Source of the DNA: Antedon mediterranea
Taxonomy: Eukaryota; Animalia; Echinodermata
Assembly (NCBI RefSeq): GCF_964355755.1
Contig: NC_092680.1
Span: forward strand, 21,027,045-21,091,044
Length of the DNA stretch: 64,000 bases
Direction of reading: 5' to 3'
Shown here one piece after another: positions 27,801 to 49,924 of this stretch (its first letter is position 1; each line of letters opens with the position of its first letter). Under the pieces are notes generated by a model. The model saw nothing but the letters and a program-made list of their open reading frames with translations, was not told the DNA's origin and made no database searches. A program made the translations under genes and the position numbers.

Positions 27801-30800
27801 TAGCATCGCTCTTACTCTTCTTTCCAGCTTTCTTAGGACTCTTCTTAATTTCTACAGCTGCAACCTTTTCTTCTACGTTTTCAACACTCTCACTGACCTC
27901 ATGTTGGGGGGCTTTGAGATTTTTAAATTCCTCTTTAACGCTAATTTGTTCCTCCTCTATTTTTTTCTTTTTTCCTCTCTTTTTCTTTGACGATTTGTCA
28001 GCAATGGAAACCGGCTCTTCATCTACTGCTGTAGTTGTAATTGTTTCTGTAACAACTGGTTCAACAGCTTGCTGAGCATTATTCTAGTTGAAAATGACAA
28101 ATATGAAGAAATATGAAAACCCACTCATTCAATTTAAGCTAAACCAGACGTATTTTCAACGTACAGTAAATTTTTATAAAACACAAAACAGACTTTCCAA
28201 AAACTGTTGAATAAAGTTCAAAATTGCCTTGAAGAGTTTATGGATACAAAATATTTTATTTTCACCCAAGTAGATTTGATTGGAGGAGTGTCGGTCACAT
28301 GATATTCAATGAATATTCAATTATAGCCCATGCAACATCATCATCATGTGAGTGCAACTTTTATCATGTGCATTCATCCTTGTTATATGCAATCTACTTT
28401 CGACATAAAAAACAAATAAAAAATGCTATTTCAATTGTGCAAATGGAACAACAATTTTTATTCGATGAAAGAAATGTTCTATTTTTTACGTCATGAAAAT
28501 ATTTGGTAACTCTTAAACATTCATAATTGGTATAATGTATTACATATTAAATTATTTTTAGAGGTTCATGAACAAATATTTACTTCTGTGCTCTGTGCTG
28601 CTTGTTTGTTCTTCTTGTCTTTACGTGAAGACACTGTACTCCACTCTTCATTATCTGAAAATAACAAAATTATCGGAAACACACTGAATAATCACTAATG
28701 AACATTTTTTTTGTCAATAAAATTCAAAGTAAATCAGGAATATACAGTAGGCTCTTCAAAATGTATTGGTAGGTGATTTTCTTTTTTGTTGTTGTTAGGG
28801 TGAGCACCCAGTGAATACAGAGTATCAATCGCAAAAGAAAAAAAAAAAAATGTGCGTGTTTTTAATGGCGTGCAACACGAATCTACAGCTAACTATGTCA
28901 GTCAGTTGGTCGGTAAACACTAACTCAAATTTGAGCAACTGCAGCCATGTAAATGGCCTTGTTAGGTTAATTGTAGAAAATGCTACGAAAGCTAGATAAT
29001 ATGACATCATGTAGGCAGTAACATTAATCTAAATATGAATATTAGAAAATATGTGTATAATTAATAATTTGATAAAATATAGAATTTATTTATACTGTAT
29101 ATTACAGAACTTTTTGCTTTAAAGCATAACATATAAAATTACAATTTAAAATGTTTTATTGCTGTACATCCTCCAAAAGATACATTATTACAAGGTCTAG
29201 TAATTGAGTCTTGCTCGTTTTACAACAACATTCTTACCATTTTCCACCTCCTCATCTCTAATGAAGTTCTCCTTCTTGGATTCTGGTGCAACCTTTGTGG
29301 ATGTAGGAGACTTCTTTGCTTTTGTGGCTTTTTTGGGTTTTACTTGCTTTATTTCGTTTACTTCCTGTGATACTTCACTCAGCACAGGTTTGCTTGTTTC
29401 AGATTTCTAAACAAAATCAATTTCAGGAGTCTTAAATTTTTTTTATAACTAGACAAGAGGACCAGTAAAAAACATTGTTACTGGTCCTCCACTGCATTTA
29501 CTGGCCACAGAATATGGGCCTTATATAGTCCATGGGCCAGACATTTTTCAAACATGAATATGCTGTTCATTATAAAGACATTTTTTCGTCATTAATAATT
29601 TATGACAATTATGGGGTAGGGGGAAACATTTTTGCAAATAACTTAAAATTTAGTGAACAGATTTACATTTTCTTGTTATCAGTATGTAATGTATGTAATG
29701 GATTTCTTTAATTGTGATATGCTTTTAAAAAATGAATCCAACTCCAAATTGATGTATTTTAGAGGTCAAATGTCACTAACCTTTAATCAAAAATGCAATT
29801 TCTTCTATTAATTAGCTTATAAATAAAACACAAAAATACAAGATATCTTATGCAAACTAATGTTTTCTTAAACCTATAGACACAATAAATAAGAAAATTG
29901 AATTTAACAAACAAATATTCTGTGAATTTATGAGGACATTCTGTCTGTTAATTATAGTAATGTATTATACATTTTTCCTAATAAATTTGTATTTAGTGAT
30001 CACATTTGCATATTTTTGGTAATAATATGTACTGTACTGTGTAGGTTGCCTAATTGTTATATTCAATTCTGAAAAAATAAAACGTAACATATTGACATCT
30101 TTGTAGGTCAAATGGTCATTGAACATTTAAAGAAATGCAATTTCGTCCAAATGTAACATTAATAAAGTTTCAATATTTAACGCAAAAATACACCAAATCT
30201 AACTTTTTTTTAAACCTATAAAAACAATGAAAAGAAATTGAAGTTAAAGATTAAAAACAAATAAACATGTGTGATAATATTAAGAATTGTGACCGTAATA
30301 GTAATTTGTAATTATTAAAAATTATGGGGTAAGGGGTAACATTTTTGCTATAACTTTGAATTTTAAAGTGAACAGATTTTACATTTCTTGGAACCAATTA
30401 TATACACTGTTTAATTGCTTATTATCAATTATAGAAAAAATTCAAGTTAAAGATTAAAAACAAATAAACATGTGTGATAATATTAAGAATTGTGACCGTA
30501 ATAGTAATTTGTAATTATTAAAAATTATGGGGTAAGGGGTAACATTTTTGCTATAACTTTGAATTTTAAAGTGAACAGATTTTACATTTCTTGGAACCAA
30601 TTATATACACTGTTTAATTGCTTATTATCAATTATAGAAAAAATTCACCGTTTAGTATTATTAGAAAAATATATTACACTTAAGCAGTCTATACACCACA
30701 TATTGATACCAAGAAAATGCAAATCTGTTTATTAAATCCTGAGTTATTAGCGAAAGTGTTACCCCCTACCCCAAAATTTTGTGTTGCATATTTTCCGTAG

Positions 30801-33219
30801 GCGGTGTTATATACTGTAATCCTCAAAAATGACTATTATTAAGCTGTACAATTGGCATTGCCATCATGGATTTCTGAAAAGTAGACATATTAAGCTTTCC
30901 AAAATGTATGATAGCATTTGCCACCAATTTGATACTGCTTTCGCAAAATACTGGACACGGCCCATGGACTAATAAGGAAGGCCTTCAATTAAATTCAAAA
31001 AGTCAAATATCAACCTTATTTACACTTGGTAGTCCAATATATGAAATATCGTAAAAAGATGAATTGAGCCTATTATTGAGATTTTATTGGCTAAGAGGAC
31101 ATGTTATTTGACCTGGATCTACCTGAATTTTGAGACTTAATAGCATTAATGCTTCTGTGCTCACCTTGACCAGAACCTATTCTTCTTTGATTCATATGGT
31201 CTGTATTTTAATTTGTGGTTAGACCAGTGTTTTTTTTATTTTAGTTTACAAATCACAGTGAATTTTTAATTTTCAAATAAAGATAAAAATGTTAATTCAC
31301 ACATTATTTTGGTCTTGAACTACAGTAGTTTGAATCTTTGTTGTAAAGTTCAGTTTACATGCCAGTGTTTTTCTTCATTATAGTTCCTGGTGTATTATTT
31401 ATATATTATTCAGCACCATGGTTACATTGCGGCTAACAGGATACAATACTTTATCATTACAGTACGTTCAATTTGGAGTATATATGGGATAATTTGATTG
31501 ATTGATATTGAAATCCGCCAGAATGGCATAGTTTATATTGTTTTTTCAAAGTTATCTAAATGCACTTGTATTTTCTATGTGGTGTTCTAGGAAATAAACA
31601 CAATTTCACTTTTAAATTAAACATGCAATAAAAATTATAAAATATTATCAATCTTATTCTTAATGTAATAATTCTTTGAAAGATAGCCTAGGCCTAATTA
31701 TTATAATTTAAATGTTTATTTTATACCTAGACCTCTAGTCGATTTGATATCAAACTTGTATTATTATCGCCGTGGCTAAAGATACGGTACCGTATCCTAA
31801 CTTCCGTTTACTAAAGGAACGGTAAAATTGAATCACGTCATAATCAGCAAATGGGGTGCTGGTACGTGTGTGACATCATAGTATAAGGACTTTGGATTTT
31901 TTTCACATCGCGTCTCCAGGCTGCATGGATGTGTGCACTGATGATTCTGTGACTCGGCCTCGGGGCTAGACCTACAGTAGCAATGTAATAACGGCCGGTT
32001 GACAACGTCGATGCTATAGTAATAGCAAGATCATGTGGTTGGTGGAGGTTACATAAACATGCACTCAATCTCAAATATTATTTCATTATACACTACAGCA
32101 GAAATATGTTGATAGCCAAATTAGAAGTAAAGGAATTATAATTAAATGTTGGAAATTGTGTTGCGTCGAGTTCATTCGTCCATAGTTACTATATGAGGGT
32201 TTTATTTTTATTCCAATGGCCTATTTAGGCCTATATTGTTTAATAAACTTTGTTTACAGTGGTGATCACAAACAAAAAGCAAATGCGGATAATAAAGGGG
32301 CCCTCAAATACTATGATTTAGACAATAGGCCTATCCCCAGGTCTGAGTCACAGAACTCAGCGCATACATGCAGCTGGCCCCAACCTGGCAAACAAACTCA
32401 TATACCGAGGCTATAGATTATAGTACATAGTACTAGTAGGTCTCTTTTAAAATGGTCAATTTCTGTATTCTAGAATTAAAATCAACATGTACATGTTTTA
32501 GCCTATCAACAATAACAGACGTAGGCCTAGGCTACATTTAGTTTTGTCACACGACACGGATAATAGCGATAAATGAAGCATAAAGAAAAAATGTTAAGCT
32601 GCCGGTTGATCACTGTTTTTGTGATATGAAAAAAAATCCTAAGTCCTTATACGATGACGTCACACACGTACTACTAACCTAGCACCCCATTCATTGGCTG
32701 ATTTTGACGTAATGCAATTTTACCATACCTTTAGCAAACGGAAGTTAGGATACGGTACCGTATCTTTAGCCACGGCGTATTTATTATTGTAAATCATAAA
32801 GTAAAAATAAACTTTTTTTTCTGTTTGGAAGTATAGGCCTAGGCCCCACAGGGGGCCTAGCCTATAAATTATAAATTATTCATTTTTATAGATAGGCCTA
32901 GGCCTAGAAGAGCCTAGAGGGGCCTAGTTTTAAAGTAGAAAGCTTTCTGAACATATGTTTAATATTACACTTCTATATGGAAAATTAAATATAAACATAT
33001 GGTAAAATTCGCTAAGCCTAGGTTGTACCATACCTTCTTCCGCTTCTTCTTCTTTCCACCGCCTTGATGATCGCCTTTCTTTTCATCAAAGTCAAAGCTA
33101 GGAGGCTGGCTAGACGACTTGAAACCAAACGCAAAAACAAGACCTAAAAGTAGCATAACACTTACAATAGGAATTGAAAAATGGAGTGGAATTACATCAT
33201 TAAACCCTTTCACTTCCAT
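24819..33219 (-). CDS. Lys-rich single-pass membrane protein, metadherin/LYRIC-like (~543 aa). Exons 33219-33034, 29406-29238, 28654-28584, 28083-27613, 26972-26670, 26515-26257, 25437-25321, 24874-24819
   Basis: Eight phase-compatible GT-AG exons. N-terminal TM (IPIVSVMLLLGLVFAFGF) followed by KKKKRKK, an EWSTVSSRK motif, and a C-terminus DSWKDASKPKKKRVRRDL resembling the vertebrate metadherin end. The gene model is solid but the orthology is an inference. Confidence 0.65.
29524..30972. mobile_element. Non-autonomous TIR element (~1.45 kb) containing an internal ~204-bp tandem duplication (30241-30646)
   Basis: tagtccatgggcc ... ggcccatggacta form an inverted pair. The duplicated block starts aagttaaagattaaaaacaaataaacatg. 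Confidence 0.55.
31768..32777. mobile_element. Non-autonomous DNA transposon with long (~130-bp) TIRs in intron 1 of the metadherin-like gene
   Basis: cgccgtggctaaagatacggtaccgtatcctaacttccgttt at the left end with its exact reverse complement at the right end. No internal transposase ORF. Confidence 0.8.
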
Positions 33220-33692: not shown

Positions 33693-33703
33693 GGGAAATT
33701 CCC
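33693..33703. promoter_or_regulatory. NF-kB-type site GGGAAATTCCC upstream of the single-BIR gene
   Basis: Matches the GGGRNNYYCC consensus, 160 bp upstream of the ATG. Function not shown. Confidence 0.55.
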
Positions 33704-33862: not shown

Positions 33863-34450
33863 ATGGCATATCATTACAATGACAATAGCAGTAGGCCTAG
33901 GCCTAGGCCTAAGAAGCAGACTACTACAGACGATTTGGATGTGGATGAAGACGGTTGCCACCCCGGCCTTATTACTAGCTCTAGTGGCAATATTATTGTA
34001 GATGGTATACCTGTGCATATTGGATCTGGGAATGAAAGAAGAGAATCGAATAATATTTACATAAGTGGTCATCCAAGTAGTGAAATTATTATAAACGGAC
34101 AGCGTATTGTCGTTGCTGGAGGTGGTGGTTTTCCCAGAGCTGATCCACAAATAATTATTGAAGATCGGATACCCGAAAGTGAAAGCATTACGTCATCAGT
34201 GGAATGTGATAATGACGTAACATCGGTTGATGGACGGTTAGAAACGTTTGAAGATTTCCCTTCTGGTTGCCCCATGTCACCTGCTCAACTCGCCCGCGCA
34301 GGTTTCTTTTACACTGGGATAGCAGACATGGTACAATGCTTTATTTGTAATGGAAAAGTGAGAGACTGGGAAATTGGAGATTCAGCGTTTGGTGAACATT
34401 TGAAGTTTTTTCCAAATTGTGAATTTGTGCACAGACAGATGGATGCATAG
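33863..34450 (+). CDS. Single-BIR-domain protein (IAP family, 195 aa, no RING)
   Basis: RLETFEDFP...LARAGFFYTG..D.VQCFIC-x16-H-x6-C is a canonical BIR with the conserved W. Head-to-head with the metadherin-like gene. Confidence 0.85.
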   Translation: MAYHYNDNSSRPRPRPKKQTTTDDLDVDEDGCHPGLITSSSGNIIVDGIPVHIGSGNERRESNNIYISGHPSSEIIINGQRIVVAGGGGFPRADPQIIIEDRIPESESITSSVECDNDVTSVDGRLETFEDFPSGCPMSPAQLARAGFFYTGIADMVQCFICNGKVRDWEIGDSAFGEHLKFFPNCEFVHRQMDA

Positions 34451-36692
34451 GCTCGGCAACCAACAACAATATATCAATGACACTCTCTTAATAGAAAAAT
34501 AATCGACAAGAATTGAAGTAACACCCGCATAAGTTATAGTTATACTATGCTCACAAACTTTAACAGATTGCTCAATAATTTAAATCTTTGGCACCAGATT
34601 GTATTTATTTATTGTTAATGATCTCATTAATTATACTGTACGTTAGTGTATTCTATCTGTTGCTTGTGTACACTCTGTAAAGTAAAACAATGTATATTAA
34701 TTATAAATAAATGCTTGCTTATTGTAGATGCAAATACAGATAAGTGTGGATCGAGAGGGGGATGATGAGTTCTTTTAAAAGGGGAGATAATTAAGTAATA
34801 TAAACACTAAACTATAGTATTGATGTGTGCTATTAAAAAAGATGGAATTAACTGACTAAATAGAAGTGATTCAGTTGTGCTGACTAGACTATCTACGGGA
34901 CGAGAGATCGGAGGGAAATTTAACACGAATGTCAATCCTTTTTGTTTGGTCCAGAATGTTTCTCCCCACTAGGCCCTTTTTACTAGAAATATACATGAAG
35001 TATACTTGAGAAGACTTCTATATTTTATGTAATTTTATTTCAAGAAATTTTCTTTTTAAAACCAAGTAGGCCTATTTACTAATCTTACTGACGTTTATTA
35101 CTAATTTAATATAGTGGCCTAGGAAACATACTTATTTCAATACAATACAATTATTGAAAATGCAATTAACAAGATAAATAAGGTATAATTGCAACATTCG
35201 ATTCCGGAAGAAACCAAATAAATTAATACTGTACTAATCAAACGGTATGCCTACAGTATGTAAATATGGTATATCGATCAAATAAGTTATAAATAAATAT
35301 ATATTATAGGTCTTAGTTGGTTGCCGGGGTGCCATGATCACGGTGACAAAACACTGCTTTATACTTTAGTTAATTTTCGGAGACAGGGTATTATAAAACA
35401 TTTTCAATAAGCATGTTATTAATGATACGAATCGATTCTTATATTTTTGTAAAAGAAATTTATTTAAGAAGATATTTATGATTTTAATATGTCTATTTTA
35501 TTATTGATTATATTCTAATAAAAATAATATGCTGGTTTACTTGGTCGAGTTACCGACGCTTGACGTGTATCTTGTACTCTGAATACACTAGTGTATAGAA
35601 ACAAGTAAGATCATTTGCCTTTCGAAGAAATGTCGATGACAGCAATTTCTGATTAAAAAGATACATATATCTGCATAGGTTACATAAACTAAAAAAGTAT
35701 CAGTAAACATAAAAAAAGATTGAATTGTTCTATTTATTGTATAGTTAGAAAAAATGGTAAAAGGATTCCTACTTTCTAGGATTTTTATCACATAATCTAT
35801 ATTGTTTTGACAACTCTTGTAACATGACCACAGTGCTGATTTTGTCATTTTCCTCTATCAAAATTAATGTAAAATGCATTGGCAGCCAAAAGCTGACAAT
35901 TACAAATATCAAACGTCTAAATGACATCAAAAAGGTAAAATAGACTAAAATATAAAAACATTGATCATAAACAATTTGGTTATTGCGTAACTGAACTGAA
36001 ACAGTAAACATAGATCGATTGTTTTTTTGTTGTTTTTTTTCTTTGTGAACAGAACACTAGACGGGCATTATGCTTTTCAAAAGATTCAACTGATTGTTAT
36101 TGATTGGACGATCCACGTGATTATACTATTATTATTATTTACTCAATTATTCTATTTTTAGAATAAACGTAAAATCCAATACTAGCAACATCCGTTGTAT
36201 GTACTGACTCTACTTGAATACAACGTCACGTTTTCATCGGTCGTCTACATTTAAAAGGTAAGAAAGCTGTCATGGACAATGAAATTACTTAGAAATATAT
36301 ATATCATGACTATTATAGGCGTTGTTTAGGTCACTTAGGCCATGATCATCTGTATTTTGGAGTATCCCGTCCTACCATACATGCCCACGATTTTAGCGTA
36401 GGCCTACTAAACTCCCGTTGACGTGGCTAAGTTCTTCTTATGTTGCACGTTTTAAATTCGCCGATATTTATAGATATTGGTCACGGGTTTGACTGATGTT
36501 TCTGAATATTAACAATCTGAAACCGTCAGTAAGTGTATGACTAATTCTTCTTAAACTAATTTAGGCGCGCCTACTAAAAAGTTGAAACTAATTTATATTC
36601 TATAAAGCAGACCATAATAACATAATGAAGAAGAAAAATATGTCATAATTGTCTTATAAATATTTCAACATTTTTATATATAAAGGTCAACC

Positions 36693-38351
36693 ATGCATAC
36701 AGCACTTCCCGAGGATGATCTGGAGACAGACTCATTTGTGGACAATTATATAGGCGACATAGACGGTGAATTCACACTTAGGCCTATCCAATCATACCAT
36801 CACTATGATAGAAACAACTCATTGCTGCATCTCTTAAAACAACATAAATATAGGCCTACAGGTATCAACGCTAATTTAAATACTACACCAAAGAAAGAGT
36901 TCAACAAAAGATGGGGTGCCAGTACTGCAGAAGATGAAAGCTTCACAGAGCAAGAATTGGATATGACAGCATTGTCAAATCGGCTTTCTACATATAAGTC
37001 CTTGGATAGAGGTTGTACTCTTGATGTTTCCATTTCACAGCTGGCAAAAGAAGGGATATTTTATAAAGACAACTTGTTTTCATGTTCGTCTTGTAAATAT
37101 ACTATTTACGCAAACAGATATCCTAATGTTTCAGAGTTACATAAAATGGAATCTCCAAATTGTTACTACGTCAAAAAATATCCAAGAAATCCATCAATAT
37201 CATACCAGTCTGAAGTAGTCGCTCCTGTTGGTTCAAGCACCCCACGTGACCAAGAATTGGCAACTTCTAGAAGCGTATTTCAATCATCCGTTTTAAATCT
37301 GGATTTGGAAAGAAATATATGTTCGCCTCAATCTGCAAAAGTGATGGAAAAAAGTTTCGATTTGATGTCTAAAGTTACAGTTGGTCAACAAATGCCTGTC
37401 AGTGCGAGGTATATGTCTTATAAAACTGTTGAAGACGATCTCTCTCTATTGGAAAACAGATTGAGAACCTTTCGTAACTGGCCATATCAAAAACCTGATA
37501 AACAGTCAGTTGCGAGAGCAGGATTCGTCTATAAAGGTGTTGGTGGAAACGTAAAATGTTTTTATTGTGATTTGGTTCTTTTACTGAATCCAAATGACGA
37601 CCCTTTCATTGAACACGCTAGACTGCTGTCATCATGTAGATGGTTTGAAGAAATGAAAGGAGATCGTTTCATCATTGAGTGCAAAACAAGATGTTATATT
37701 AATCAAGGTGAGACAGAATGTGGAATCCGAGATTATAGGACAAATGGAAACTCACAACATCTACCGGAAACAACATTTGAAGAAACACCTAGAGATGAAA
37801 AGGAACAAAAAACCGTATCTAAAATCTCGGGAAGTTTGAGTCCATCTGCATATTCGAAAAAACTGAAATTGGATGCTAATGCAAAGTCTAAAATTAAACT
37901 TGCACAAGAATTTGGTTTTAATGGTGATACCATAATGGCGGTAGTAACAAAACACTTAAAAGATAACAATGGTGTTTTTTCTTTGTCAAACGAAGATATG
38001 ATTGAAAAAGTTATGGATGAAGATGCTGCTAATCAAGAAATTAAGCCGAGTGCCCATACTGAGATACCAGACCTAACAACCCTTACGTTAAATGATACAA
38101 CAACTGAAAGTCTTACATCTGATACACTGAAGACGTCCAATGAGGCATCGCAATCTAAAGATGATGTTGCCAAGGAACTAGAGGATCTTAAGGACCAGCA
38201 CGCGTGTAAAATATGCTTGGACCAATCTGCTAACATACTATTCAGGCCCTGTAATCACCTGGTTACCTGCAATGAATGTTCAAAGAACATCAACATGTGT
38301 CCAGTTTGCCGAGCAGCAATTGAAGACCGGATTAAAATTTATCAAAGTTAA
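36693..38351 (+). CDS. Inhibitor of apoptosis protein, BIR-BIR-UBA-like-RING (552 aa, uninterrupted CDS)
   Basis: BIR1 CSSC-x15-H-x6-C; BIR2 RLRTFRNWP...AGFVY...CFYC-x15-H-x6-C; UBA-like LAQEFGF; terminal RING CKICLD...PCNH..CNEC...CPVCR. Confidence 0.93.
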   Translation: MHTALPEDDLETDSFVDNYIGDIDGEFTLRPIQSYHHYDRNNSLLHLLKQHKYRPTGINANLNTTPKKEFNKRWGASTAEDESFTEQELDMTALSNRLSTYKSLDRGCTLDVSISQLAKEGIFYKDNLFSCSSCKYTIYANRYPNVSELHKMESPNCYYVKKYPRNPSISYQSEVVAPVGSSTPRDQELATSRSVFQSSVLNLDLERNICSPQSAKVMEKSFDLMSKVTVGQQMPVSARYMSYKTVEDDLSLLENRLRTFRNWPYQKPDKQSVARAGFVYKGVGGNVKCFYCDLVLLLNPNDDPFIEHARLLSSCRWFEEMKGDRFIIECKTRCYINQGETECGIRDYRTNGNSQHLPETTFEETPRDEKEQKTVSKISGSLSPSAYSKKLKLDANAKSKIKLAQEFGFNGDTIMAVVTKHLKDNNGVFSLSNEDMIEKVMDEDAANQEIKPSAHTEIPDLTTLTLNDTTTESLTSDTLKTSNEASQSKDDVAKELEDLKDQHACKICLDQSANILFRPCNHLVTCNECSKNINMCPVCRAAIEDRIKIYQS

Positions 38352-38969
38352 GATACTTAATACTTACTAATACTTACTGATGTTATGTAAATTACCAGAC
38401 ATGATCAAGAAAATGCCATACTGTATTAAACAATAATTTCTTAGGAGTAATAATACGATATAATAATACGATATCCCTGATAATAAAAATTATGAAATTA
38501 AAGGTTACAATAAAGATGTATTGTCCCCCAAAAACTATAAATAAATCTTTGAAAGGTTATTTTGTAGTGTTAATAGAGCTATTCACTTTCGTAGAAAAAA
38601 ATCAAGAAAAATAATGTTTTCACTTATAAAATAACATAATAGGCCTAAATGGTTAATTTCAACCACAATTCCTTTGGCTGGCAGCTTATTTGACTATTAT
38701 TACAGTTTTTTCAGGTAAATCAATTTTTGTTCGATCCAATTATTGGTCAAAGTGGATAACTAATATGGGAAATTAAAATGGTATATTCAACCAAAAAAAA
38801 TTGTAAGAATTATTTTTTCAGGGGGACAATACATCTTTAACAATTCCAGGATGTTCATCAACATCCGGGTTTAGCAACAAGGTTTTTATTATATATATTT
38901 TTTTCAAATTGAAGTTACTGTATGCTGAAGGTTCATGTAAAGAAAAAAAATATATATATATATATATAT

Positions 38970-39130
38970 ACTGATGAAGGGCTAGTGTTGCCCGAAAGCT
39001 CTGCTAACTTTTCTGGCTGTTTACTTTATCGTTTTGATTTAGCCTTTTGCTTTTTATTTTTGTATCTCCATTGAGATCCAGCCACTGATACCCACAGCAT
39101 TGTCATTTTTTTCAGTAATTTGCCTTTGGA
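38970..39130 (+). mobile_element. Second Penelope-like hammerhead-containing fragment in (TA)n
   Basis: Near-identical to 22421-22580. Confidence 0.65.
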
Positions 39131-40454
39131 TTTATACATATACATGTATATATATTTAAACAGAATACATTGCAGGATAGTACTTAAAACTTAGGCCTAC
39201 GTTGCATAGTAGTGCTTGTTTTCATATGTACTGTATCTAGAAATGTAACCACCGGCGTGCAAAATGGTGTCGACGATTGGCATTCACCGAGATGCACGCA
39301 ATTCGGTGATGCCAAAATGTATTTTAATCATTTATTAGACATTTACAAACAAATTTCAAATTCCAAATAAATACTAATTTCCTGTACCATACAGTATACT
39401 TTATATTAAAATGTTTACTGTGGTGTGCCCTGTATTAAAGATCATATAGAGTGTTATATATAGGTAACTTTATTCCAAAAAATGTAACCAAACCACGCAC
39501 TGTGGATTTACAAAATCTGATAAGTTCTTACATGCATGCATCTTACAACAACACAAAATATAAAATAACGTAAAAATAAAGATTCAAAATAACAAAAGCC
39601 ACTTATTTCTGTTGCTGGCAATCTCACGCAAACCGCAACCGTTTAATAAATATACATAATATCACTTGAAATCAATCATGGCTTACCTCTCGTTATTTGG
39701 AGTCAGTTTTATACTATTACTTGATATGTACAGTATTTGTAAAATCGTCACTATTCTCACATTCGTATGCCTAAATTAAAAAAAAAAACACCGGTATGCC
39801 AACAATATAACCTGGCGGCAGGGCATGGCATCATCAGGGCCTTGCAAGGGTGGGAAGATAACCTGCACCTGTGGTGGAATGAGACCGTCTCCTGAAAGTG
39901 TACCTCAATTGGAGAAGGCACCCATGTATATCCTATAGGCCTAGTTGTGGAAAATACAAGCCTCACGTGATCAGTCATAGCGCTGCAAATAATAGAAAAA
40001 TCGAGGCAAACGTCACATTTGCTAAAATAACATAGGTGGGGCAATTGGAAAAACGATTTATTAATCACGACTAGAGAGTACAGTAATTACCACATCACGA
40101 TAACCTACATTACAGAGTGGGACGACTTGGATGAGTATACTATTATTACTGTACTAGGCTACCGTAATTGTCTATGCATCCCTTCCCCCACTGTCGATAT
40201 GGATTATTATTCTTTGGGCTACTCGTAAAATGTAGCGATTTTTCAACGTTGTATGTTTGTGATATTTGGTGTGGCAACTGCGCATCAACATGAAAAAACA
40301 TTGATGTAGATTTTCCATTTAATTATAGGTGAGAAGCGAAAGCTATAATTGTCAGTTGATTCATTCTGTATACAGAGAAGTACAGTGTAATCTCGTATTA
40401 GCAACGTATTATTTGATTTGTATAAGGGTGTATGTTTCGCTTTGGGCCTACAAA

Positions 40455-41580
40455 ATGGCTACAGGAGGACAAGACGAAGTGATTTCATCATCACAGGACC
40501 TAGAAGAAAACGGATTTATTCAAATAAACAATAACTATCAGTGTTTGCATTGTAGGTTTACACTTACAGTTAAAAAAGGAAATATCAATATTAATTTCTT
40601 ACGATCGTTGCATAGTTTCGAATCTCCAAAGTGTGATTTTATTTCAAAAAAGAAAACAACACACATGGAAACGAAAACAATCCTAAGACCTCTTGCCAAA
40701 AATCCGATGTTGCGACTGAAAAAGTCAGTAAAACACGTCCACCTACACCACCTCCAAAACCTCAACATATTGCCGACAAATTCAAATCCAGGATGGAAAA
40801 AAGGTGTGAAGATTCCAGCCAACACTCGAAGCATCCAGTAATGCAGACAACATCTGACTCAAAATCGAATCCAGTATTGCAGACAAGATGCAACACAATT
40901 GGAAATGAACACAATCCTAAAACAGCTGACTCAAAGTCGAATGTTGCGATTGAAAAAGACCGTAATAAAACAGATGCCATGAAAATAAAAGGAACACGTC
41001 AACCAACACCACCTCCAAAACCTCCACATTTCCAAACACTAGAATCCGATATTACAACAACACGTCAAAGTAAATCCGAATATGAGCGACACTGTTATCA
41101 TCAAGTGAAGTTAAATAATATTAATTATGGTGTCGTAAACAATAACATTGCACTTGATAAAAATAGTTATGTTAAAGAAAGGTAGGTCTACAGCAGAATG
41201 CAGGGTATAGACATTCTAAACAAACATGGCTTAAAATGGAAGCAAGGGTAAATGCTCTCTCACAACAATTAGGAAGAATGACATTGGAACTGAACAAAAA
41301 AGACAAAATAATAGAAAATCTTCAAAATGATTTATTGAAGTTAAGACGATCGAGACGCCGTAACGTTAGAGGTAAAACTAGGGACACAAAAAACAAAGAC
41401 AGACCAAGTAAATTACAAAGAAAACAAAGCGTGTTACAGCTCGCTAAGATTAGTAACAAGAAATCGAAGGCTGTAAGAGAAAAGAAGAAATACAGAAGAA
41501 AAGTTGTTATGGCAAAAACAAATGCGTCTGATGAAGTTGATGTACTCAATGATGGGGAAACAGTACTATGGATATCATGA
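40455..41580 (+). pseudogene. Frameshifted, internally deleted BIR-ORF1p paralog
   Basis: MATGGQDEVISSSQDLEENGF...CLHC...LHSFESPKC, then PPPKP repeats, then LQNDLLKLRRSRRRNVR and REKKKYRRKVVMAK, all homologous to 42620-43990 and 45318-46937. Split over three frames by -1 shifts at ~40650 and ~41175. Confidence 0.75.
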
Positions 41581-42619
41581 ATAAACAAAACATCATGCTG
41601 CCTAACTCGGAAAAACCAGCATAACAATTCAAAGTAATGTACAATTCAATTAATCAAATAAACCGTACTGTCGGAATAACTATATTTTTACTAATACTAT
41701 TATTTTTAGTTTAGATTGTCAGACTCTGAAGCATTAGAAATGTAATGATAACAAAACCAGCCTAAAATAAACAACAATTTGGTTTATTCAATTGTTAAAC
41801 AACAATTTAGATTTTTTAAGGGGTGGCGGGAATGATTAATTTAGCATAATATTAGGTTTGATAACAATTGAATTGAACAAATGAATCTTAACATTAATTA
41901 TGAATGAAAATGTTGTTGGTGATGGGGCACTATGTAAATGCAGAACAATCTCTTTCAAGTTTTATGTACAGATCACTCCGTAAACAATAAAACATATTCC
42001 TGGTGTCACTGAGGGTTTCTGTTTAATTTTATTTTGTGTGAACGCTAAAACACAATAGTCGTAGAATACTATAATATTGATATAAGCGTCACGTGATTAT
42101 TCATAGCAAATCAGAGCGTCATAATCGATCACTTAGAACTAACAATAACGATTATTGATCAATATTCTGAAGGTTATTATTGCCACATCACAATACTCTA
42201 TATTACATCACGGTGATAGGTCCAACTTGGTAAGTAGGATTATTTTATTATTAATTCAGTTATATATATATATTCATTCAATATTCATCCCCCACCACCT
42301 ATATATTGTTAATGAAAAATCATTCAACTTAAAAGGCCTATGCTATACGTCCGGCTAGCTTGGGATTTCCAAAATCCGAACGCTTGGGTGAAGTCTAGAC
42401 ATCTCTGTCGTTTGCCAAATCAACGGTATCCAGATGGAAACATCATGTAGATATTTGATAGAAATTCTAGAATACATGCAGTTACCACTTGCCATTGGTC
42501 ACTAACAAATTTGTTTAGCAACGGGTTACACTCAAATGGCGTATGCATGTGGTAGTTTCACAGGACGTATATACAAACTCATTGTCCACTTTTTTTTACA
42601 ACTATAGGCATTAATCAAT

Positions 42620-43990
42620 ATGGCAACATCGGCAGATCTAGGTAAAGAAACAGTGATTTCACCACAGGAACTGGCAAGAATTGGATGTAGTCTCGATCTC
42701 AGAAACAATGAACTTCGATGTTTGCATTGTGATTTTACAGTCAAAAAAAGAAGTTTTCCAATTTATTTAAAGTTGCATAGGCACGGATCTCCAAACTGTG
42801 ATTTCAATATTGGAAACAACACAATTGCAAATGAACAACATCCCAGCACCTCTGACCTAACATTCCATTCCAGGATCTTGCCTAAGGACGAGAAATGTGT
42901 AACACCGCGTATAAACATGGAATCTACAAGTGCACGACCTCACAAATATCCAGTAGGCCTAATTCAGACAACAGCTCAATCAAATAATAACGAAGAATTA
43001 AGTATGAAAAGCACCAAAACAACAGCATTGGAATTGGAAACAGAAGATGACCGGATGGTTAGTTTTTCCGGTTGGCCACACAGAAAACCAAACAAATGGG
43101 AAGTTTCAATGGCAGGATTCTCTTTCCTGGGTGTTGGTGATAGGGTCAAATGTTTTTCATGCGGTTTTACAAAAGATTCATGGAAACCAACTGATGATCC
43201 TTTTTATGAACATGCAAAAACTGGAGAGTGTTCATGGCTTATAGAAAATAAGGAAAGGAGTTTAATTACAACATGTCAACGAAAGTACCAATTAGAGCAG
43301 CAGCAGAATTGTCTTCAAAAAGATATTAATAAAAACACTAACAGTTTGGGCAACAAAATAAACATTTCTGAATTGATGACTGCTAACAAGCTAGATTACA
43401 AAGATAACATAAATGCGGTTAAAAGCAAGGTACAGAATACTGAGTATGAACAGGCTAAACAAACTGATTCATCATTGCTTAAAATTGAGAAGAAAGTAGA
43501 GGCTCTTGCGCCACGAATAGAAATCATGGAACTTGAATTAAAAGAAAAAGATAAAACAATAACAGATCTGCAAAACGATTTACTGAAGTACGAGAGACGA
43601 TCAAGAAGTAGTAACTTGAGATTTGGAGGTGTAATCGAGGACAGAAACGAAAACACACTACATAAATTGCAAGGACTAATACGAAGTGTATTACACCTCG
43701 ACGACATTGAAATTGAGAAGGCGCAGAGAGTTGGTAAAAAGGTATCTGGAAATCCACGACACATTATTGCAACATTTAAGGATATACATCAGATGAATAC
43801 CGTTTTCAGAAAATCAAAATCTTTAAAAAGCGGTAGGTTTCACGTAATGGAAGATTTGGCACCAACAGACATGAGGGAAAAGCAGAGATTAAAAGATGTT
43901 ATGGATAAAGCATATGAGGCTGGATATCACCCTGAATTCCGCCGTGATGGTATACTATACATCAATGGCAAACCATACGATCCCGAGTAA
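42620..43990 (+). CDS. Chimeric BIR-BIR + LINE ORF1p (coiled coil-RRM-CTD; L1TD1/Transposase_22-like) protein, 456 aa
   Basis: Truncated BIR1 CLHC-x15-H-x6-C; BIR2 RMVSFSGWP...AGFSF.G.GD.VKCFSC-x16-H-x5-C; then heptads and the ORF1p motifs RSRSSNLRFGGVIE, IEKAQRVG...PRHIIATF, VMEDL and LYINGKPY. Confidence 0.85.
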   Translation: MATSADLGKETVISPQELARIGCSLDLRNNELRCLHCDFTVKKRSFPIYLKLHRHGSPNCDFNIGNNTIANEQHPSTSDLTFHSRILPKDEKCVTPRINMESTSARPHKYPVGLIQTTAQSNNNEELSMKSTKTTALELETEDDRMVSFSGWPHRKPNKWEVSMAGFSFLGVGDRVKCFSCGFTKDSWKPTDDPFYEHAKTGECSWLIENKERSLITTCQRKYQLEQQQNCLQKDINKNTNSLGNKINISELMTANKLDYKDNINAVKSKVQNTEYEQAKQTDSSLLKIEKKVEALAPRIEIMELELKEKDKTITDLQNDLLKYERRSRSSNLRFGGVIEDRNENTLHKLQGLIRSVLHLDDIEIEKAQRVGKKVSGNPRHIIATFKDIHQMNTVFRKSKSLKSGRFHVMEDLAPTDMREKQRLKDVMDKAYEAGYHPEFRRDGILYINGKPYDPE

Positions 43991-44254
43991 TTACAGCCTG
44001 TCATAACTATACTGTTAATTATTATACTGTTAATTTATTATAGGCCCACTTAGTATACAAATAATTTAGATTTATTATGTAAGCATATCCTTTGTTTTTA
44101 ATGTGAATATGTTTTTTTACAATTTGATTCTCTATTTGACTTTCCTTTAATTAAATGCATAATTCGTGTACCTTTTGGACAACTAGACGTAAACAGATAT
44201 AGGTTTAAATGTTAATACTTCAAATATTGTTGGTAAACTATTCGAACATAAACA

Positions 44255-44410
44255 AACCAGATGAATTCTGTATTAAAGGAAACACAGTTTTAGGTAATGG
44301 AGGATTAAGGACTTGGCACCAGCAGTAGTTAGAGGAACGTAGAAGACACATATTAGGGAGCTTCGATTATAACTGGATGGTATTCGAATTGAGCATGCGC
44401 ATAGGGTTAG
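44255..44410 (+). pseudogene. Scrambled relic of the ORF1p part of the chimeric genes
   Basis: ggatggtattcgaattgagcatgcgcatagggtt matches 46643-46676. gtaatggagga...ttggcaccagcag matches 43844-43869. Confidence 0.6.
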
Positions 44411-45317
44411 GTAGGCTACATTATTTACATTTATAACATTATATTATTTACAAACGCAACGGTAATTAATTGTGTAGTACCGGTGTGCTGGCGCCTTTTC
44501 TATGCATGATTAATACGTTTAAAATGTGTATGAAATCCACATAGGCCTACATTATAAACTTAATCAAGTACGAATGAATGTAACGTTTCCGTCGTATTTA
44601 TACTTTGTACACATGAGAAGCGTATGAACGGCATAACAGTGGTGGTACAAATATCTGATAATATAGACCCCGTATAGACCACTAATAAAACTAAAGGTTT
44701 CTATTCAAATAATCCTTTTGTTCAACAGTAGAAAATGTATTTGAAAAATGAACTCGTCATTCAACAATTTATTATTCAAGCACCGGATGGTTTTGTTGTC
44801 ACGTGTTTAATCGTACCAAATGCACAGGATAGAATATTAAAGGAAGACAATTTGGCGTAACATAGTGTAAATAATTGTCGCATTCTAATAACTGAATAAG
44901 CTACAGAATCTCAGAGATACAAATTGGTAAGTTTGTCATATAATCATTATCAATAACTTTCTATGGATCCTATTACGTCCTCTACGGGTGTTTTTCACTG
45001 AAAATCGATTATAACAAAAATACTATTCACTACAAGAATAGAAAAATGTTTCAATGTAAATTGGAATTTCCAAAATCCAGAGGCTTTATGACGTGTTGAG
45101 ATAGAGAGGCCCTAAATTTCCAAAGTGCATGAGGCATAATCGGAATTTTGCAAAACAACAGCATAAAAATAAAATATTGAAAGTAAATTTTGCATTTAAT
45201 TCTAGTTTCAACCGTCCCGTACACATTCTGAATAGGCCTACAGTACTTGGGTTTGTTCTAGCCTAATATTTGACAGTCAAGAAGAAAATACTTCCAGTTA
45301 CATAAATTGGGTGAAGT

Positions 45318-46937
45318 ATGGCAACATCCGCAGGCACAGTGATTTCACAGCAGGAACTGGCAAAAAATGGATTTACTCAGAGAAACAATGAACTTCATTG
45401 TTTGTATTGTAATTTTACAGTAAAAAAAGGAAAATTTTCAATTTATCGAATGTTGCATAAACACGAATCTCCAGACTGTGGTACACAAAGAGAGAACACA
45501 TTGAGAAATGAACAAACAACAAACACCAAACCAGGTACAATGAAAGTGAAAAAAACAGGTCCACCTATACCTCAGAAACCACAAAGATACAAACAGAATG
45601 TCCAAATTGACCAATCCCATCTCTTGCCTAAGACCGACATCAGTGTAAGGCTGGAAAACAAAAGCGAACGACCTCACTCAAGAAATGTTAGGCCTACAAT
45701 AATAAATACAAATCTTCCAATGTACTCAAAGCTGTATAGACATGAATCGTCTGATGAGAGTGGGAGGGCTATCATTTCAAACGCTAGAGCGAACAAGCTT
45801 ACTGAAAATGTACAAAAACCAAGCACATCCTATTCAAAATCAAATTATGGGACTAAAAAAGAGAGTACCGAAACCATGAATGTGAAACAAACAACTCCAT
45901 GCCCGTCTGCTGTACGTCCAAAACAACGCAAGAGAAACAAACAGAATGTCCAAATAATCCAATCACATCTCATCCCAAGACCGCGTGTTATGCTGGAAAA
46001 TACAAGCGAACGACCTCACAAATATCCAGTTGTAGGCCTAATTCAGACAGCAGCTAAATCAAATAATAACGATGACTTCAGTAAAAACAACGCATCGTAT
46101 GCACAGCGTGTACCTTCCAAAGCATTGGAATTTGAAGATGAACGGATGAGGAGTTTTTTACGTGGGCCACACAGAAAACCATGTCTTATAGAAAATAAGG
46201 AAAGGAGTTTTATTACAACCTGTGAGTTCCAATTGGAGCAGCAGCAGAGCTGTCTTCAAAAAGTGAAGTTAGATATTAACAAAAACAAAAATTGGGGCGA
46301 AAAAAGAAACATTTCTGAATTGATGACTTCTAACAAGCTAGATTACAAAGATAACATAAATGCGGTTAAAAGCAAGGTACAGAATACCGAGTATGAACAG
46401 TCTAAACAAATCGATTCGTCATGGCTTAAAATTGAGAAGAAAGTAGATCTTTCACCACAAATAGAAGACATGGCACTTCAATTGAAAGAAAAAGACCAAG
46501 CAATAACAGATCTGCAAAACGATTTATTGAAGTTAGAGAGACGGTCGAGAAGTCGTAACTTGAGATTTGGAGGTATAGGTGAAGACAGAAACGAAGACAC
46601 ACTAAGTAAATTACAAGGTCTAATACGAAGGGAATTGCGCCTCGATGGTATTAAAATTGACCATGCGCATAGGGTTGGTAAAAAGGTATCTGGAAGTCCA
46701 CGACACATTATTGCAACATTTAAGGACATACGTCAGATGAATACAGTTTTAACGAAAACAAAGGCTTTAAAATGCGACTGGTTTTACGCAAAGGAAGACT
46801 TGGCGCCAGCCGACCTGAGAGAAAAGCAAAAATATAAAAATATTATGGCTAAAGCATATGCGGCTGGACATCACCCTTCATTCCGTGATGGAGTATTATA
46901 CATTGATGGCAAACCCTACTTCGGAGATCTCGAGTAA
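45318..46937 (+). CDS. Second chimeric BIR + LINE ORF1p protein, 539 aa, with BIR2 deleted in frame
   Basis: CLYC-x15-H-x6-C BIR1-like start, an expanded linker, and an intact RSRSRNLRFGGIGE...IDHAHRVG...PRHIIATF...KEDL...LYIDGKPY module. Confidence 0.85.
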   Translation: MATSAGTVISQQELAKNGFTQRNNELHCLYCNFTVKKGKFSIYRMLHKHESPDCGTQRENTLRNEQTTNTKPGTMKVKKTGPPIPQKPQRYKQNVQIDQSHLLPKTDISVRLENKSERPHSRNVRPTIINTNLPMYSKLYRHESSDESGRAIISNARANKLTENVQKPSTSYSKSNYGTKKESTETMNVKQTTPCPSAVRPKQRKRNKQNVQIIQSHLIPRPRVMLENTSERPHKYPVVGLIQTAAKSNNNDDFSKNNASYAQRVPSKALEFEDERMRSFLRGPHRKPCLIENKERSFITTCEFQLEQQQSCLQKVKLDINKNKNWGEKRNISELMTSNKLDYKDNINAVKSKVQNTEYEQSKQIDSSWLKIEKKVDLSPQIEDMALQLKEKDQAITDLQNDLLKLERRSRSRNLRFGGIGEDRNEDTLSKLQGLIRRELRLDGIKIDHAHRVGKKVSGSPRHIIATFKDIRQMNTVLTKTKALKCDWFYAKEDLAPADLREKQKYKNIMAKAYAAGHHPSFRDGVLYIDGKPYFGDLE

Positions 46938-47530
46938 ACGTGGGTACCAAACGAAGATAGCAATTCTATTTTTGAATGTGACCTGATATCTTTATACAAG
47001 GAACATACCTTTTGGATAAGCAGTTTGCCTCACAATTTGTATTTTAACCCGAAAGTTTGGTGGTATCATACATGATTTATCTAATAAGAGATTTATTTCA
47101 AAGATTTGTAGCTGTAAATGTTAATGCTTTTATAAAATAAGAATACACACCAGAATGTCGTTTTAAAGTTGTAAAAACATAGACGAATAGATGAATATCG
47201 AAATAGCAATGCGTCTGTAAGCCTAAATCACTTTTGTTTTATAAGAGTAAGACTATGTTATAAAACAGAACAAGTTGTTCCCAATTTTAAAATCGTGGTA
47301 GAAATTGTACTTTCTTAGGTTGTGGCGGGTTTTTGTTGTTATGGGAACCAAGCTTAACGTAGTTTATTATTGGCAATGATGTAAATAAACAACTATTATA
47401 TATTATTTTCATACAATATTTCAAATCAGAAAAAGATAAGAACCAATGTTTAAAATAAATCAGTTTTTCAATTGTAGGAATACATGATAGCATAATATAA
47501 TATAGAAACAAATAACACAAAATAATAATA

Positions 47531-47790
47531 TCAGATAGGTGGTAGTCCCCCTGATACAGGGGCTATTGTGTGAAGCAGTTCACCGGGGTAACCCCCTACT
47601 CTTTTTCGAATAATGAACTGGGTTCTTTAAAGTACACACAGGCTATAACTGCGTACACTGGACCTACGGTTTATAGTCCTTATCCGAGAAGACTTGTTCC
47701 ACCACCAGAACCCTTGCCGATGTTGTTGTTGGCTCTTTAGGTACGGTAAACGGCGCCCCTGCCTTAACCGCTCGGCCATATGACTCGCGA
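47531..47790 (-). mobile_element. Nin/Deu-core tRNA SINE with a long flanking direct repeat
   Basis: Same core as 4838-5121, with A box TGGCCGAGCGG. taatataatatagaaacaaataacacaaaataataata flanks both sides. Confidence 0.75.
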
Positions 47791-49924
47791 TAATATAATA
47801 TAGAAACAAATAACACAAAATAATAATAAATAGATATTACCCATTAACTCCATCATAAAGGTTAAGTATTGTTCTGTCTGTAAGATTATTTTGTTTTTAC
47901 TATTTCATTTTACTTGTATAATCGCTTCTTATTTATTTAAGATTTGAAGTTATTTTTTATATTTTACTTTTTGTTTTATATTGCCTTGTAAATGAACATG
48001 TGCCGTTGATACAAAGCTGTTGTTCAATAAAGAATTAAAAAAATTAATAAAAAAATCGACCATAAAAAACTTCCTTGTGTAATTGAATTAGCTATCTACC
48101 TTTCGTAAAATGATTGCCTGCTACAGTGAGAAACAATATTCATTCTAGATTATAAACGAACAGATCGACCTGTGTGTTATTTAGTTTAGTGAGACATATG
48201 ACAATAGGCCTACATATTTTGAAAAGAAATATCTAAAATACACTTCACAATGCATCAGATTTTATCACTACCTGTATGTTTGAGGACAGACAAAGGAACA
48301 TGATGGTTGGATAAGTTACACAAACACAAGGTTTATGTTAATAAATGTGTGTTATTGAAATAATCAATTGTATTCGCCATTATTTTCTAGTTTACAAAAA
48401 TAGTTGAGTTCAGGTCATAGTTCTGACATAACAAGGAAATAATACCCAGACAATCACAAATTCCCAAACAATCACATGTTTCGAAAGAATATGAATTGAA
48501 AAAAATCCATAGATTTGAAATAGAAATTGAAAACCACTGATAAATGTGCAGTATGATGAAGATATACCAAAATACAACAATATAACTGAAACCATTTTCT
48601 GTTTAATATTATGCCATTTGATTGTAATTTGTTATTCACTTTGACAACAAATTATTGGTTTAAACAAATATTTGCCTGAAAAAACTATAATACAAAGCTA
48701 AAAACAGTCGATCAGAATGTTGGAGTTTAATTGGACATTTTGTCTTTTTATAAGTGAAATAATTAATTAGTTTTTTTCTACAGAAGTGAATAACTTTATT
48801 AAAACTGAAAAATGGCATATTCAATGTCTGATTTTATTAATCATAATTGTTCATATTGTTGTTCGCGACATGCTTCATACATCTTTACTATAACTATATG
48901 GACAAAATTGAATCTGAATTGATGCCTACAGATTTTAAAGTGTTTATCATGTCATCCGCTTGTTTTCAATTCTCGCACAAATTGAACATTCCTGAGCTAT
49001 TTGATTGGTTAGCCATTACCTACATCAACACTTTGCACGAACATATGTGACACTACTAGCTTTAAAAAATCAAAATACATAAGAAAATCTGAAGAGTTTA
49101 AACTGCGATTCATTTTATTGTTAATGTTGTCTTATAATGCAATTACGATTTTAAAATGGTGTGCCGATCAGCTCAGCTACACAATGCTGTTATAGGGTTA
49201 TCAACAAACTTTTAGTTCGCAGGTGCTAAAAACCAGGGACGAGTGAATTCACTTTTCCCTGCTAAAAAACAATAATACCCGCAGAGAAGATCATAAGGTG
49301 TGAATCTATGGTATTGCAACATAAACTAATTTAAATATGATTGTCAACTTAAAGTCCTAATAAAACAAAATATCTAAAAACAATATTAGGTATTATATAG
49401 TATTACTGTGACATTTAATTTATAGAAAATGTTTTAGAATTTCTGATGTTTATAGTGAAGTTTGTGACTGATCATGGAGAATAACTTATTTCTTCATGGA
49501 CTGAAAGAAAAATAATTTATCTAAAACTAATCTACTTTATATATTATTATATTTATACAATACTAACTAAACTAATCAAATCTGTGATTTATTTGAATAT
49601 TTTGCAGTCTTATGACGTCATACGTCTACTCGTAAAATGCCACAAGTGGCAGTCGACTTGCACATGCGCATATCATAAAAATGATGTCATAAGATAGCAA
49701 CCGACAAAGTTGATGTGAAAAAAATAATATTCCCAATTATTTGAATGTGAACAGGCATATTGGTTTTGTTTAGTTTCATTTATCAGGCCAAGAGAATAGA
49801 TTTAAAGAAATCACAAATATGGCACAAAATGGCCCAAAATGTCTGTTTTCAATTATATTACGACCATAAGAACATTCTTGGTTTGTCAGTACATGAATAA
49901 TTAATTTGTGTTAAAAAAACATTT

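Follow-up and report, generated by a model that had tools for sequence, protein, structure and literature searches.

A feather-star locus in which IAP BIR domains are fused in frame to an L1-type ORF1p module

Type II ORF1 proteins (ORF1p) are found in L1, CR1, L2 and R1 elements (PMC4120745), and the available text of Kitao et al. 2025 (PMC12129022) describes host-ORF1p fusion isoforms from four vertebrate genes, namely Lyosin (ORF1p-MYL4), L1-RFX5, NUP42-L1 and USP4-L1. As far as the available sources go, these four fusions and L1TD1 are all vertebrate. Genes for inhibitor of apoptosis proteins (IAPs) with retroposition domains have been reported from oyster and scallop, in an account whose available part names no ORF1p fusion (PMC8917759); a survey of metazoan IAPs does not contain 'ORF1' in its available text, nor L1 ORF1 domain terms in the supplement text searched, which may be partial, and being InterPro-based it would probably miss such a module (PMC13159474). 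Here we describe a 64,000-nt stretch of AT-rich animal DNA (the window) in which a pair of BIR domains of IAP type and an L1-type ORF1p module lie in one open reading frame (ORF). No BIR-ORF1p fusion was found in the literature searched (subscription papers being outside its scope), and the locus adds an invertebrate deuterostome case and a new partner domain. An IAP of 552 aa encoded in the window (IAP552) has the same sequence as residues 211-762 of Antedon mediterranea XP_071964217.1 and matches Anneissia japonica XP_033112436.1 at 35% identity over its full length, and the locus is therefore that of a feather star.

The + strand carries, in order, a one-BIR ORF (IAP195), IAP552, a broken chimeric copy (chimC), the 456-aa chimera (chimA), a decayed ORF1 remnant and a second chimera (chimB), followed by TMEM214 exons on the - strand (Table 1). 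The array thus keeps together a member of the parent lineage, two intact copies with different edits, one pseudogene and one remnant. The IAP and the chimera of the original prediction are both present as ORFs, although the end given for the chimera was too short, the frame continuing past it to 43990. The IAP had been called adjacent and canonical; it does lie in the same array, but chimC stands between it and chimA, and it is not canonical, having one coding exon, a degenerate BIR1 and a BIR2 short by one residue.

Table 1. Features of the IAP-ORF1p array, by position in the window.
Feature	Positions	Strand	Remarks
IAP195	33863..34450	+	one-BIR ORF; chimera BIRs not derived from it (p-AU 0.011)
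IAP552 E-box CACGTG (-579) and splice-donor-like GGTAAG (-435)	36114..36262	+	function inferred; likely promoter and non-coding first exon
IAP552	36693..38351	+	552 aa, single coding exon; ORF list, Pfam, own profile
chimC upstream region	39964..40454	+	homologous to that of chimA; E-box retained, donor and kappaB-like site decayed
chimC	40455..41606	+	broken chimera copy, three ORF pieces
chimA E-box (-530) and donor-like GGTAAG (-390)	42090..42234	+	motif search
chimA kappaB-like motif (-258)	42362..42370	+	same offset as in chimB; pattern picked after sighting
chimA	42620..43990	+	456-aa ORF: BIR1-linker-BIR2-ORF1p
chimA BIR1	42620..42805	+	N-terminally truncated; four Zn ligands retained; x15 spacing
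chimA BIR2	43052..43237	+	XIAP-BIR3-like; four Zn ligands; H-x5-C
IAP/ORF1p junction zone	43320..43395	+	anchored extension; spanned by one organism B contig
L1-type (type II) ORF1p module	43346..43987	+	predicted coiled coil, RRM, CTD; RhxxhE motif at aa 299
Decayed ORF1 RRM/CTD remnant	44244..44413 (approx.)	+	score 64 vs best of 300 shuffles 50.5
chimB E-box (-518), donor-like GGTAAG (-391) and kappaB-like motif (-255)	44800..45071	+	motif search
chimB	45318..46937	+	539 aa: BIR1, expanded linker, BIR2 core deleted, ORF1p module intact

The N-terminal half of chimA is that of an IAP, carrying BIR zinc ligands of the C-C-H-C pattern and matching PF00653 at 65.8 bits against a cut-off of 22.9 (chimB, at 14.6 bits, falls under it). 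The start Met occupies the position of the conserved BIR Arg, such that the ORF begins within BIR1 and the first helix of that domain is lost. The best solved-structure matches of BIR2 are NAIP and XIAP BIR domains; it retains the Trp and acidic residues of a typical BIR3, has Thr/Lys/Thr in place of Gly/Leu/Trp, and is one residue shorter before the last Cys, the groove role of these residues being one that we assume from XIAP BIR3. The N-terminal Ala-Thr-Ser-Ala of chimA was considered as an IAP-binding motif and set aside, as its positions 3 and 4 misfit what we take to be the consensus. Loss of the RING is borne out for both chimeras by Pfam, and no UBA or RING remnant was found elsewhere in the window in a six-frame scan. 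In chimB a 144-nt in-frame deletion removes the BIR2 core; chimC is reduced to a BIR1 piece, a linker piece and a coiled coil with a frameshifted RRM, its BIR2 being unrecognisable. A model of full-length chimA is of low confidence in the BIR half (pLDDT about 55-80).

The C-terminal half is predicted by profile and fold to be a type II ORF1p with a coiled coil-RRM-CTD arrangement, as originally proposed. Pfam Transposase_22 has no direct match in the chimeras and matches 13 of the 115 members of the family alignment at E up to 0.01. A profile of those 115 sequences (113 of the best 150 hits plus the two chimeras) finds human ORF1p (2ykp/2yko) at E 6e-23, and the structure model of this half (pLDDT 93) matches 2yko in Foldseek at E 4e-9. 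With an E threshold of 0.001, 1386 relatives were recovered from 1.84 billion protein representatives; the 150 best of these, of 264 aa median length, are all without a BIR. The three best are Antedon proteins, and the nearest is a stand-alone 271-aa protein (XP_071957269.1, 47% identity), which is also placed nearest in a tree of 45 rows (the top 42 of the 150 hits, P0166 and the two chimeras). Within the module chimA retains 32 of 35 family-conserved columns, a 36th listed column (residue 221) falling outside it, and it has the RhxxhE motif, as do 76 of the 150 relatives. No ORF2 was found linked to any relative: 24 pattern matches in metagenomes came down to one locus, on a 1045-nt contig that ends 15 nt past the stop, and 5 pattern matches in viral contigs and 13 in prokaryote contigs yielded no locus. 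The LINE (long interspersed nuclear element) origin of this ORF1p family therefore rests on the fold and the literature. In the Atlas the C-terminal part falls with baculovirus-FP-like and unnamed clusters at 0.91-0.93 (the whole protein only at 0.75), which we take, by a presumed link, to be distant ORF1p-like kin, with no viral origin implied. Six of the six long relatives tested (P0059, P0076, P0080, P0090, P0100 and P0108) have a C-terminal NADAR domain, a fusion that thus recurs in this family.

The fusion junction is at the orthologous position in a second species, a close relative (organism B) that was compared by means of its contigs. One contig covers 42300-43423 across the junction with 27 differences, which rules out an assembly artefact, and further contigs cover the remainder, such that coverage runs from the upstream flank through the junction and the ORF1p half into the downstream flank, with no indels at 43220-43990. 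The chimA stop codon is lost in organism B and a new one lies two codons on, and the 144-nt BIR2 deletion of chimB is common to both species. Among the 40 of 194 rows listed, differences fall in 15 chimA codons; the residue is changed in 9 of these, the IAP half accounts for 8 of the 9, and only one listed difference changes a BIR2 residue. Contigs of the X5 set, the RNA nature of which is a guess, cover both chimeras in part at a depth of about 5-15, the intergenic level, and the two IAPs at about 60-190, although contig depth cannot rank genes. Between 42300 and 42567 there is cover by X6 and X8 contigs and none by X5 or X9 contigs, but the contig ends do not fall at one place and we draw nothing from this.

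The reading frame of the chimeras is clearly kept, and there is modest amino-acid constraint on the transposon half. The ORF1p halves of chimA and chimB differ at about 17% of DNA positions with both frames open, and neutral simulation with 10% or 15% change per lineage left a stop-free ORF in 0 of 600 runs. The two copies are separated by 19 gaps, 13 of which have a length divisible by three; the remaining six lie in the linker and cancel pairwise. Between chimA and chimB, dN/dS is 0.49, 0.62 and 0.73 in the ORF1p half at kappa 1, 2.2 and 4, and 0.99, 1.27 and 1.51 in the IAP half; constraint on the former has p 0.013 by neutral simulation (p 0.002-0.10 depending on kappa), and against organism B it is more conserved than IAP552 (p 0.001). 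An open frame with purifying selection and the same position in a second species are what a domesticated gene would have, and this pattern of constraint is better explained by a domesticated ORF1p than by a dominant-negative IAP. That the chimeras are relaxed or dying genes, selected formerly or never and drifting to the state of chimC, would suit the presence of one broken copy and one remnant, dN/dS intervals that touch 1, and the want of an exact protein match in the database; it is rather improbable, as ORFs of 1.4 and 1.6 kb have stayed open over about 17% DNA divergence, the indels preserve the frame, and the frame of the ORF1p half is also kept in organism B.

The BIR domains of the chimeras are shown by phylogeny to descend from the IAP552 lineage. 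The BIR2 motifs quoted in the original prediction are correct, and chimA aligns with IAP552 at 27% identity over 263 aa (BLASTP, E 3e-26) and, as DNA, at 63.5% over 192 nt (E 1e-9). The BIR1 domains of both share Cx2C-x15-H-x6-C and an LHxxxSPNC ending, as does the Anneissia orthologue; the x15 spacing is present in chimA, chimB, IAP552 and the Anneissia protein and in none of 22 BIRs from nine outside proteins. A tree of 31 single BIRs groups the chimera BIR1s with those of IAP552 and Anneissia (support 97/98) and chimA BIR2 with their BIR2s (99/98), and in a concatenated tree of 15 rows the chimeras, IAP552 and the Anneissia orthologue form one clade (100/99); both trees carry long-branch warnings and were built with other crinoid IAP paralogues left out. 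Clustering with a viral or another IAP, on which the proposed parentage would have failed, is rejected for viral locus L002 (p-AU 0.009), IAP195 (0.011) and a scallop IAP (0.001). A viral origin of the BIRs is likewise set aside: five matches gave three loci, grouping with L002 is rejected, and L003, which lay outside the AU test of L002, stands apart from the chimeras in the tree. The lineage of the parent thus stands. Within it the direct parent may be the present-day neighbour or an ancestral copy of it, as the three orders within the clade are not separable (p-AU 0.40-0.41); chimA scores 122 bits against the Anneissia orthologue and 98 against IAP552, a protein that evolves fast (3.9-5.3% divergence from organism B).

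Extension from BIR2 peaks at residue 242 (with IAP552) or 258 (with Anneissia), and extension back from the RRM at residue 235 (with the nearest ORF1) or 226-275 (with eight relatives), and the junction is therefore placed in the zone given in Table 1, within the range originally proposed. About 40-50 residues at the start of ORF1 are absent from the chimera. Neither ORF2 nor a poly(A) tail, the marks of an autonomous LINE, was found: no RT or endonuclease family is matched in 104 stop-to-stop frames of at least 45 aa in 38352-56000, and no run of at least 8 A follows chimC, chimA or chimB. No donor family closer than 47% identity occurs among the relatives. The step proposed earlier, insertion of a LINE in frame after BIR2, is thus one that we infer, with no donor LINE, ORF2, UBA-RING remnant or poly(A) found; from the sequence, insertion followed by deletion would look the same as a deletion joining a nearby element. 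UBA homology running on into the coiled coil was also considered, and has no match in the chimeras.

The upstream regions bear on how the copies arose. There are 8 CACGTG sites in the 64 kb, and 4 of these sit 491-579 nt before the start codons of IAP552, chimC, chimA and chimB, whereas 1.4% of random 120-nt windows hold one; in three of the four (IAP552, chimA, chimB) the E-box is followed by GGTAAG, 390-435 nt before the start. This common layout supports the local duplication originally proposed, is what speaks for the neighbouring IAP552 in particular, and is read as a DNA-level duplicate that kept its promoter and 5′ intron; a template-switch retrocopy is disfavoured by the retained upstream donor-like site. 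Upstream homology between chimeras gives z 14 for chimA-chimC, 8 for chimA-chimB and 3.5 for chimB-chimC, the last under the best shuffle. What we take to be a kappaB-like motif occurs at -258 in chimA and -255 in chimB, and the window has just one further site, upstream of IAP195. These motifs give a hint of immune induction of the chimeras; the count was reached in 3 of 100 shuffles, a stricter consensus misses the chimA and chimB sites, and the pattern is post hoc. The site before IAP195 (33693-33703, 170 nt before the start) matches the consensus on both strands.

Origin of the chimeras is thus very probably a DNA-level duplicate of the IAP gene, with its promoter and 5′ intron, in or behind which a LINE or ORF1-only element became joined in frame 35-55 codons past BIR2, the unit then multiplying and partly dying. 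It is very improbable instead that they are a mobile ORF1-only (HAL1-like) retroelement that captured BIRs, as CR1 and L2 ORF1s carry PHD domains. Domain shuffling in ORF1 is described as common in LINEs in the available text of PMC4120745, the long relatives tested have a fused NADAR, and no ORF2 lies behind the chimeras, all of which would suit a mobile unit; the copies, however, are in tandem, have upstream DNA with a donor-like site in common and no poly(A) runs, and no ORF1-like relative among the best 150 has a BIR. Only 10 contigs per DNA run were found on 42300-44300 at 80% identity, a weak point, as contigs attest presence only.

The copies are probably selected as proteins, with the ORF1p half as the chief target; the IAP half would contribute the promoter, the start codon and, for chimA, a single BIR that may be functional. 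According to the available text of PMC5940361, human ORF1p depends on a charged N-terminus, and retrotransposition is abolished when a tag is placed there; a subunit capped with BIRs would therefore be expected to poison mixed trimers. We tentatively suggest that the bulky BIRs in place of the ORF1p N-terminus would let the protein join ORF1p trimers and RNA without supporting retrotransposition, a decoy like the dominant-negative trimer proposed for L1TD1 (PMC4161310, in its available part). The reading that we favour, and hold with some reserve, is accordingly that the chimeras may be domesticated ORF1p genes that arose by local duplication of the IAP552 gene, and that their products would form trimers, bind RNA and interfere with LINE particles.

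Several observations weigh against this reading. In organism B, 11 of 13 gap letters at 42300-43249 are unplaced within 42412-43249, and the BIR half may be broken there. The interval on dN/dS of the ORF1p half excludes 1 at kappa 1 and, with an upper end of 0.98, at kappa 2.2, but not at kappa 4, and this half differs from organism B at 5 of 361 positions compared with 14 of 548 in the adjoining 43753-44300 (p 0.34). The RhxxhE motif is missing from chimB, and neither chimera is in the protein collection as an exact sequence. Between IAP552 and the chimeras the upstream DNA has no significant alignment (z at most 1.9; no nhmmer match), and the E-box/donor layout was spotted after the fact. 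In human cells Lyosin neither affected L1 nor entered ORF1p foci, and for L1TD1 a lack of L1 suppression is reported, both as given in the available text of PMC12129022. With the nearest family at 47%, any target similar enough to co-assemble may have died out.

Two other functions can be weighed on the same evidence. With the same origin and domestication, the chimeras might act in host RNA regulation or signalling without an anti-LINE role; the product would be an RNA-binding trimer or a component of granules, recruiting partners of the BIRs to RNA and controlled by immunity or stress. The conserved RRM-CTD, the kappaB-like motifs, the distant donor and the failure of known ORF1p co-options in L1-suppression tests fit this account; we consider it somewhat unlikely, as BIR1 and the linker lack amino-acid constraint and chimB has no BIR2, such that a BIR-dependent adaptor fits chimA only, and birth-and-death turnover would seem to suit conflict genes better. 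The original prediction was of a dominant-negative or re-targeted IAP, in which the coiled coil would display three copies of BIR2, and these would trap caspases or proteins with an IAP-binding motif but not ubiquitinate them. The RING is indeed lost, chimA BIR2 has all four Zn ligands together with the acidic residues of a BIR3 and its Trp, which IAP552 BIR2 has lost, its best solved matches are as given above, and it has a single listed residue change in organism B. This function is nonetheless weakened, and we think it quite unlikely, by the substituted and shortened BIR2 of chimA, the deletion of BIR2 from chimB in both species with the frame still open, the loss of the first helix of BIR1, and constraint on an RRM-CTD that display alone would not need. 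To return to the favoured interference with LINE particles, an extended form of it, which we regard as unlikely, would make the chimeras a crinoid defence family, with LINE ORF1p under an immune-inducible IAP promoter, in which BIR-ORF1p joins LINE ORF1p trimers, blocks retrotransposition and, through chimA BIR2, couples LINE particles to the cell-death/NF-kappaB machinery; if true, this would be a LINE counterpart of TRIMCyp/Fv1-style innovation. As chimA has BIR2 and chimB does not, the two form a natural pair for asking whether ORF1p is kept for transposon defence, RNA regulation or signalling.

IAP552 comprises a degenerate BIR1 (aa ~92-160), BIR2 (256-318), a UBA-like helix (~395-445) and a RING (502-545). 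BIR2 has a one-residue deletion and has lost the typical BIR3 Trp; the UBA has no Pfam match and is seen only as a degenerate UBA-like helix, our own profile of it giving E 1e-4 for the Anneissia orthologue and 0.5 for the 552-aa protein. The Anneissia orthologue XP_033112436.1 is single-exon and 555 aa long. RefSeq model XP_071964217.1 (762 aa) merges IAP195, a 15-codon piece and IAP552 (33863-38351), a join that is doubtful because it requires a GC donor, the Anneissia orthologue is single-exon, and IAP552 has its own E-box/donor layout. The divergence of IAP552 from organism B exceeds that of chimA, the residue is altered in 11 of 15 codons listed, with a cluster at the start of BIR2, and positive selection is possible. 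Anneissia has 29 IAPs, two others of which have the same E2+C BIR pair, and the supplement to the same survey includes a BIR fused to a Mab-21/cGAS-like domain (XP_033106383.1), another crinoid BIR shuffling event (PMC13159474, in the parts available).

Elsewhere in the window, the TMEM214 exons (50695-54477, - strand; Pfam PF10151, 'caspase 4 activator') lie directly downstream of the IAP array and are a useful synteny anchor. A multi-exon gene for a Lys/Glu/Ser-rich protein (25300-33200, - strand) is head to head with IAP195, high-copy interspersed repeats flank the chimera array on both sides (38500-39150 and 47550-47830), and a 344-aa Gln/Met/Pro repeat ORF (13637-14671) has no Pfam match.

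Genes of this kind are easily overlooked, as Pfam is blind to the ORF1p half and there is no exact protein match in the database; word-index searches gave 2, 7 and 3 proteins with no further chimera among them, but they missed known relatives and so show no absence. Compared with described systems, each as given in the available part of its source, the chimeras are like the Lyosin-type fusions (PMC12129022) in having a host domain in frame with an ORF1p coiled coil and RRM, and like NUP42-L1 in having a C-terminal ORF1p with a nearly complete CTD. Those fusions are alternative exons of vertebrate genes, whereas the chimeras are duplicate genes in their own right with the fusion inside a single coding exon, are tandemly amplified, have ORF1p in place of UBA-RING and belong to an echinoderm. 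L1TD1 (McLaughlin et al. 2014, PMC4161310) is likewise a domesticated ORF1p with gene turnover and a proposed interference with ORF1p trimers, but is mammalian, has two ORF1-homologous regions and no host domain, and shows positive selection, which is not shown for the chimera ORF1p half. The ORF1p of type II LINEs (2yko; Metcalfe and Casane 2014, PMC4120745) shares the fold and the conserved RRM/CTD residues; the chimeras differ from it in having BIRs for the N-terminal 40-50 residues and no ORF2 downstream. RING-type IAPs with an E2+C BIR pair (Anneissia XP_033112436.1; Ribeiro Lopes et al. 2026, PMC13159474) share the BIR pair, its order, the BIR1 x15 spacing and the single coding exon, whereas the chimeras have a truncated BIR1, no UBA-RING and an added ORF1p.

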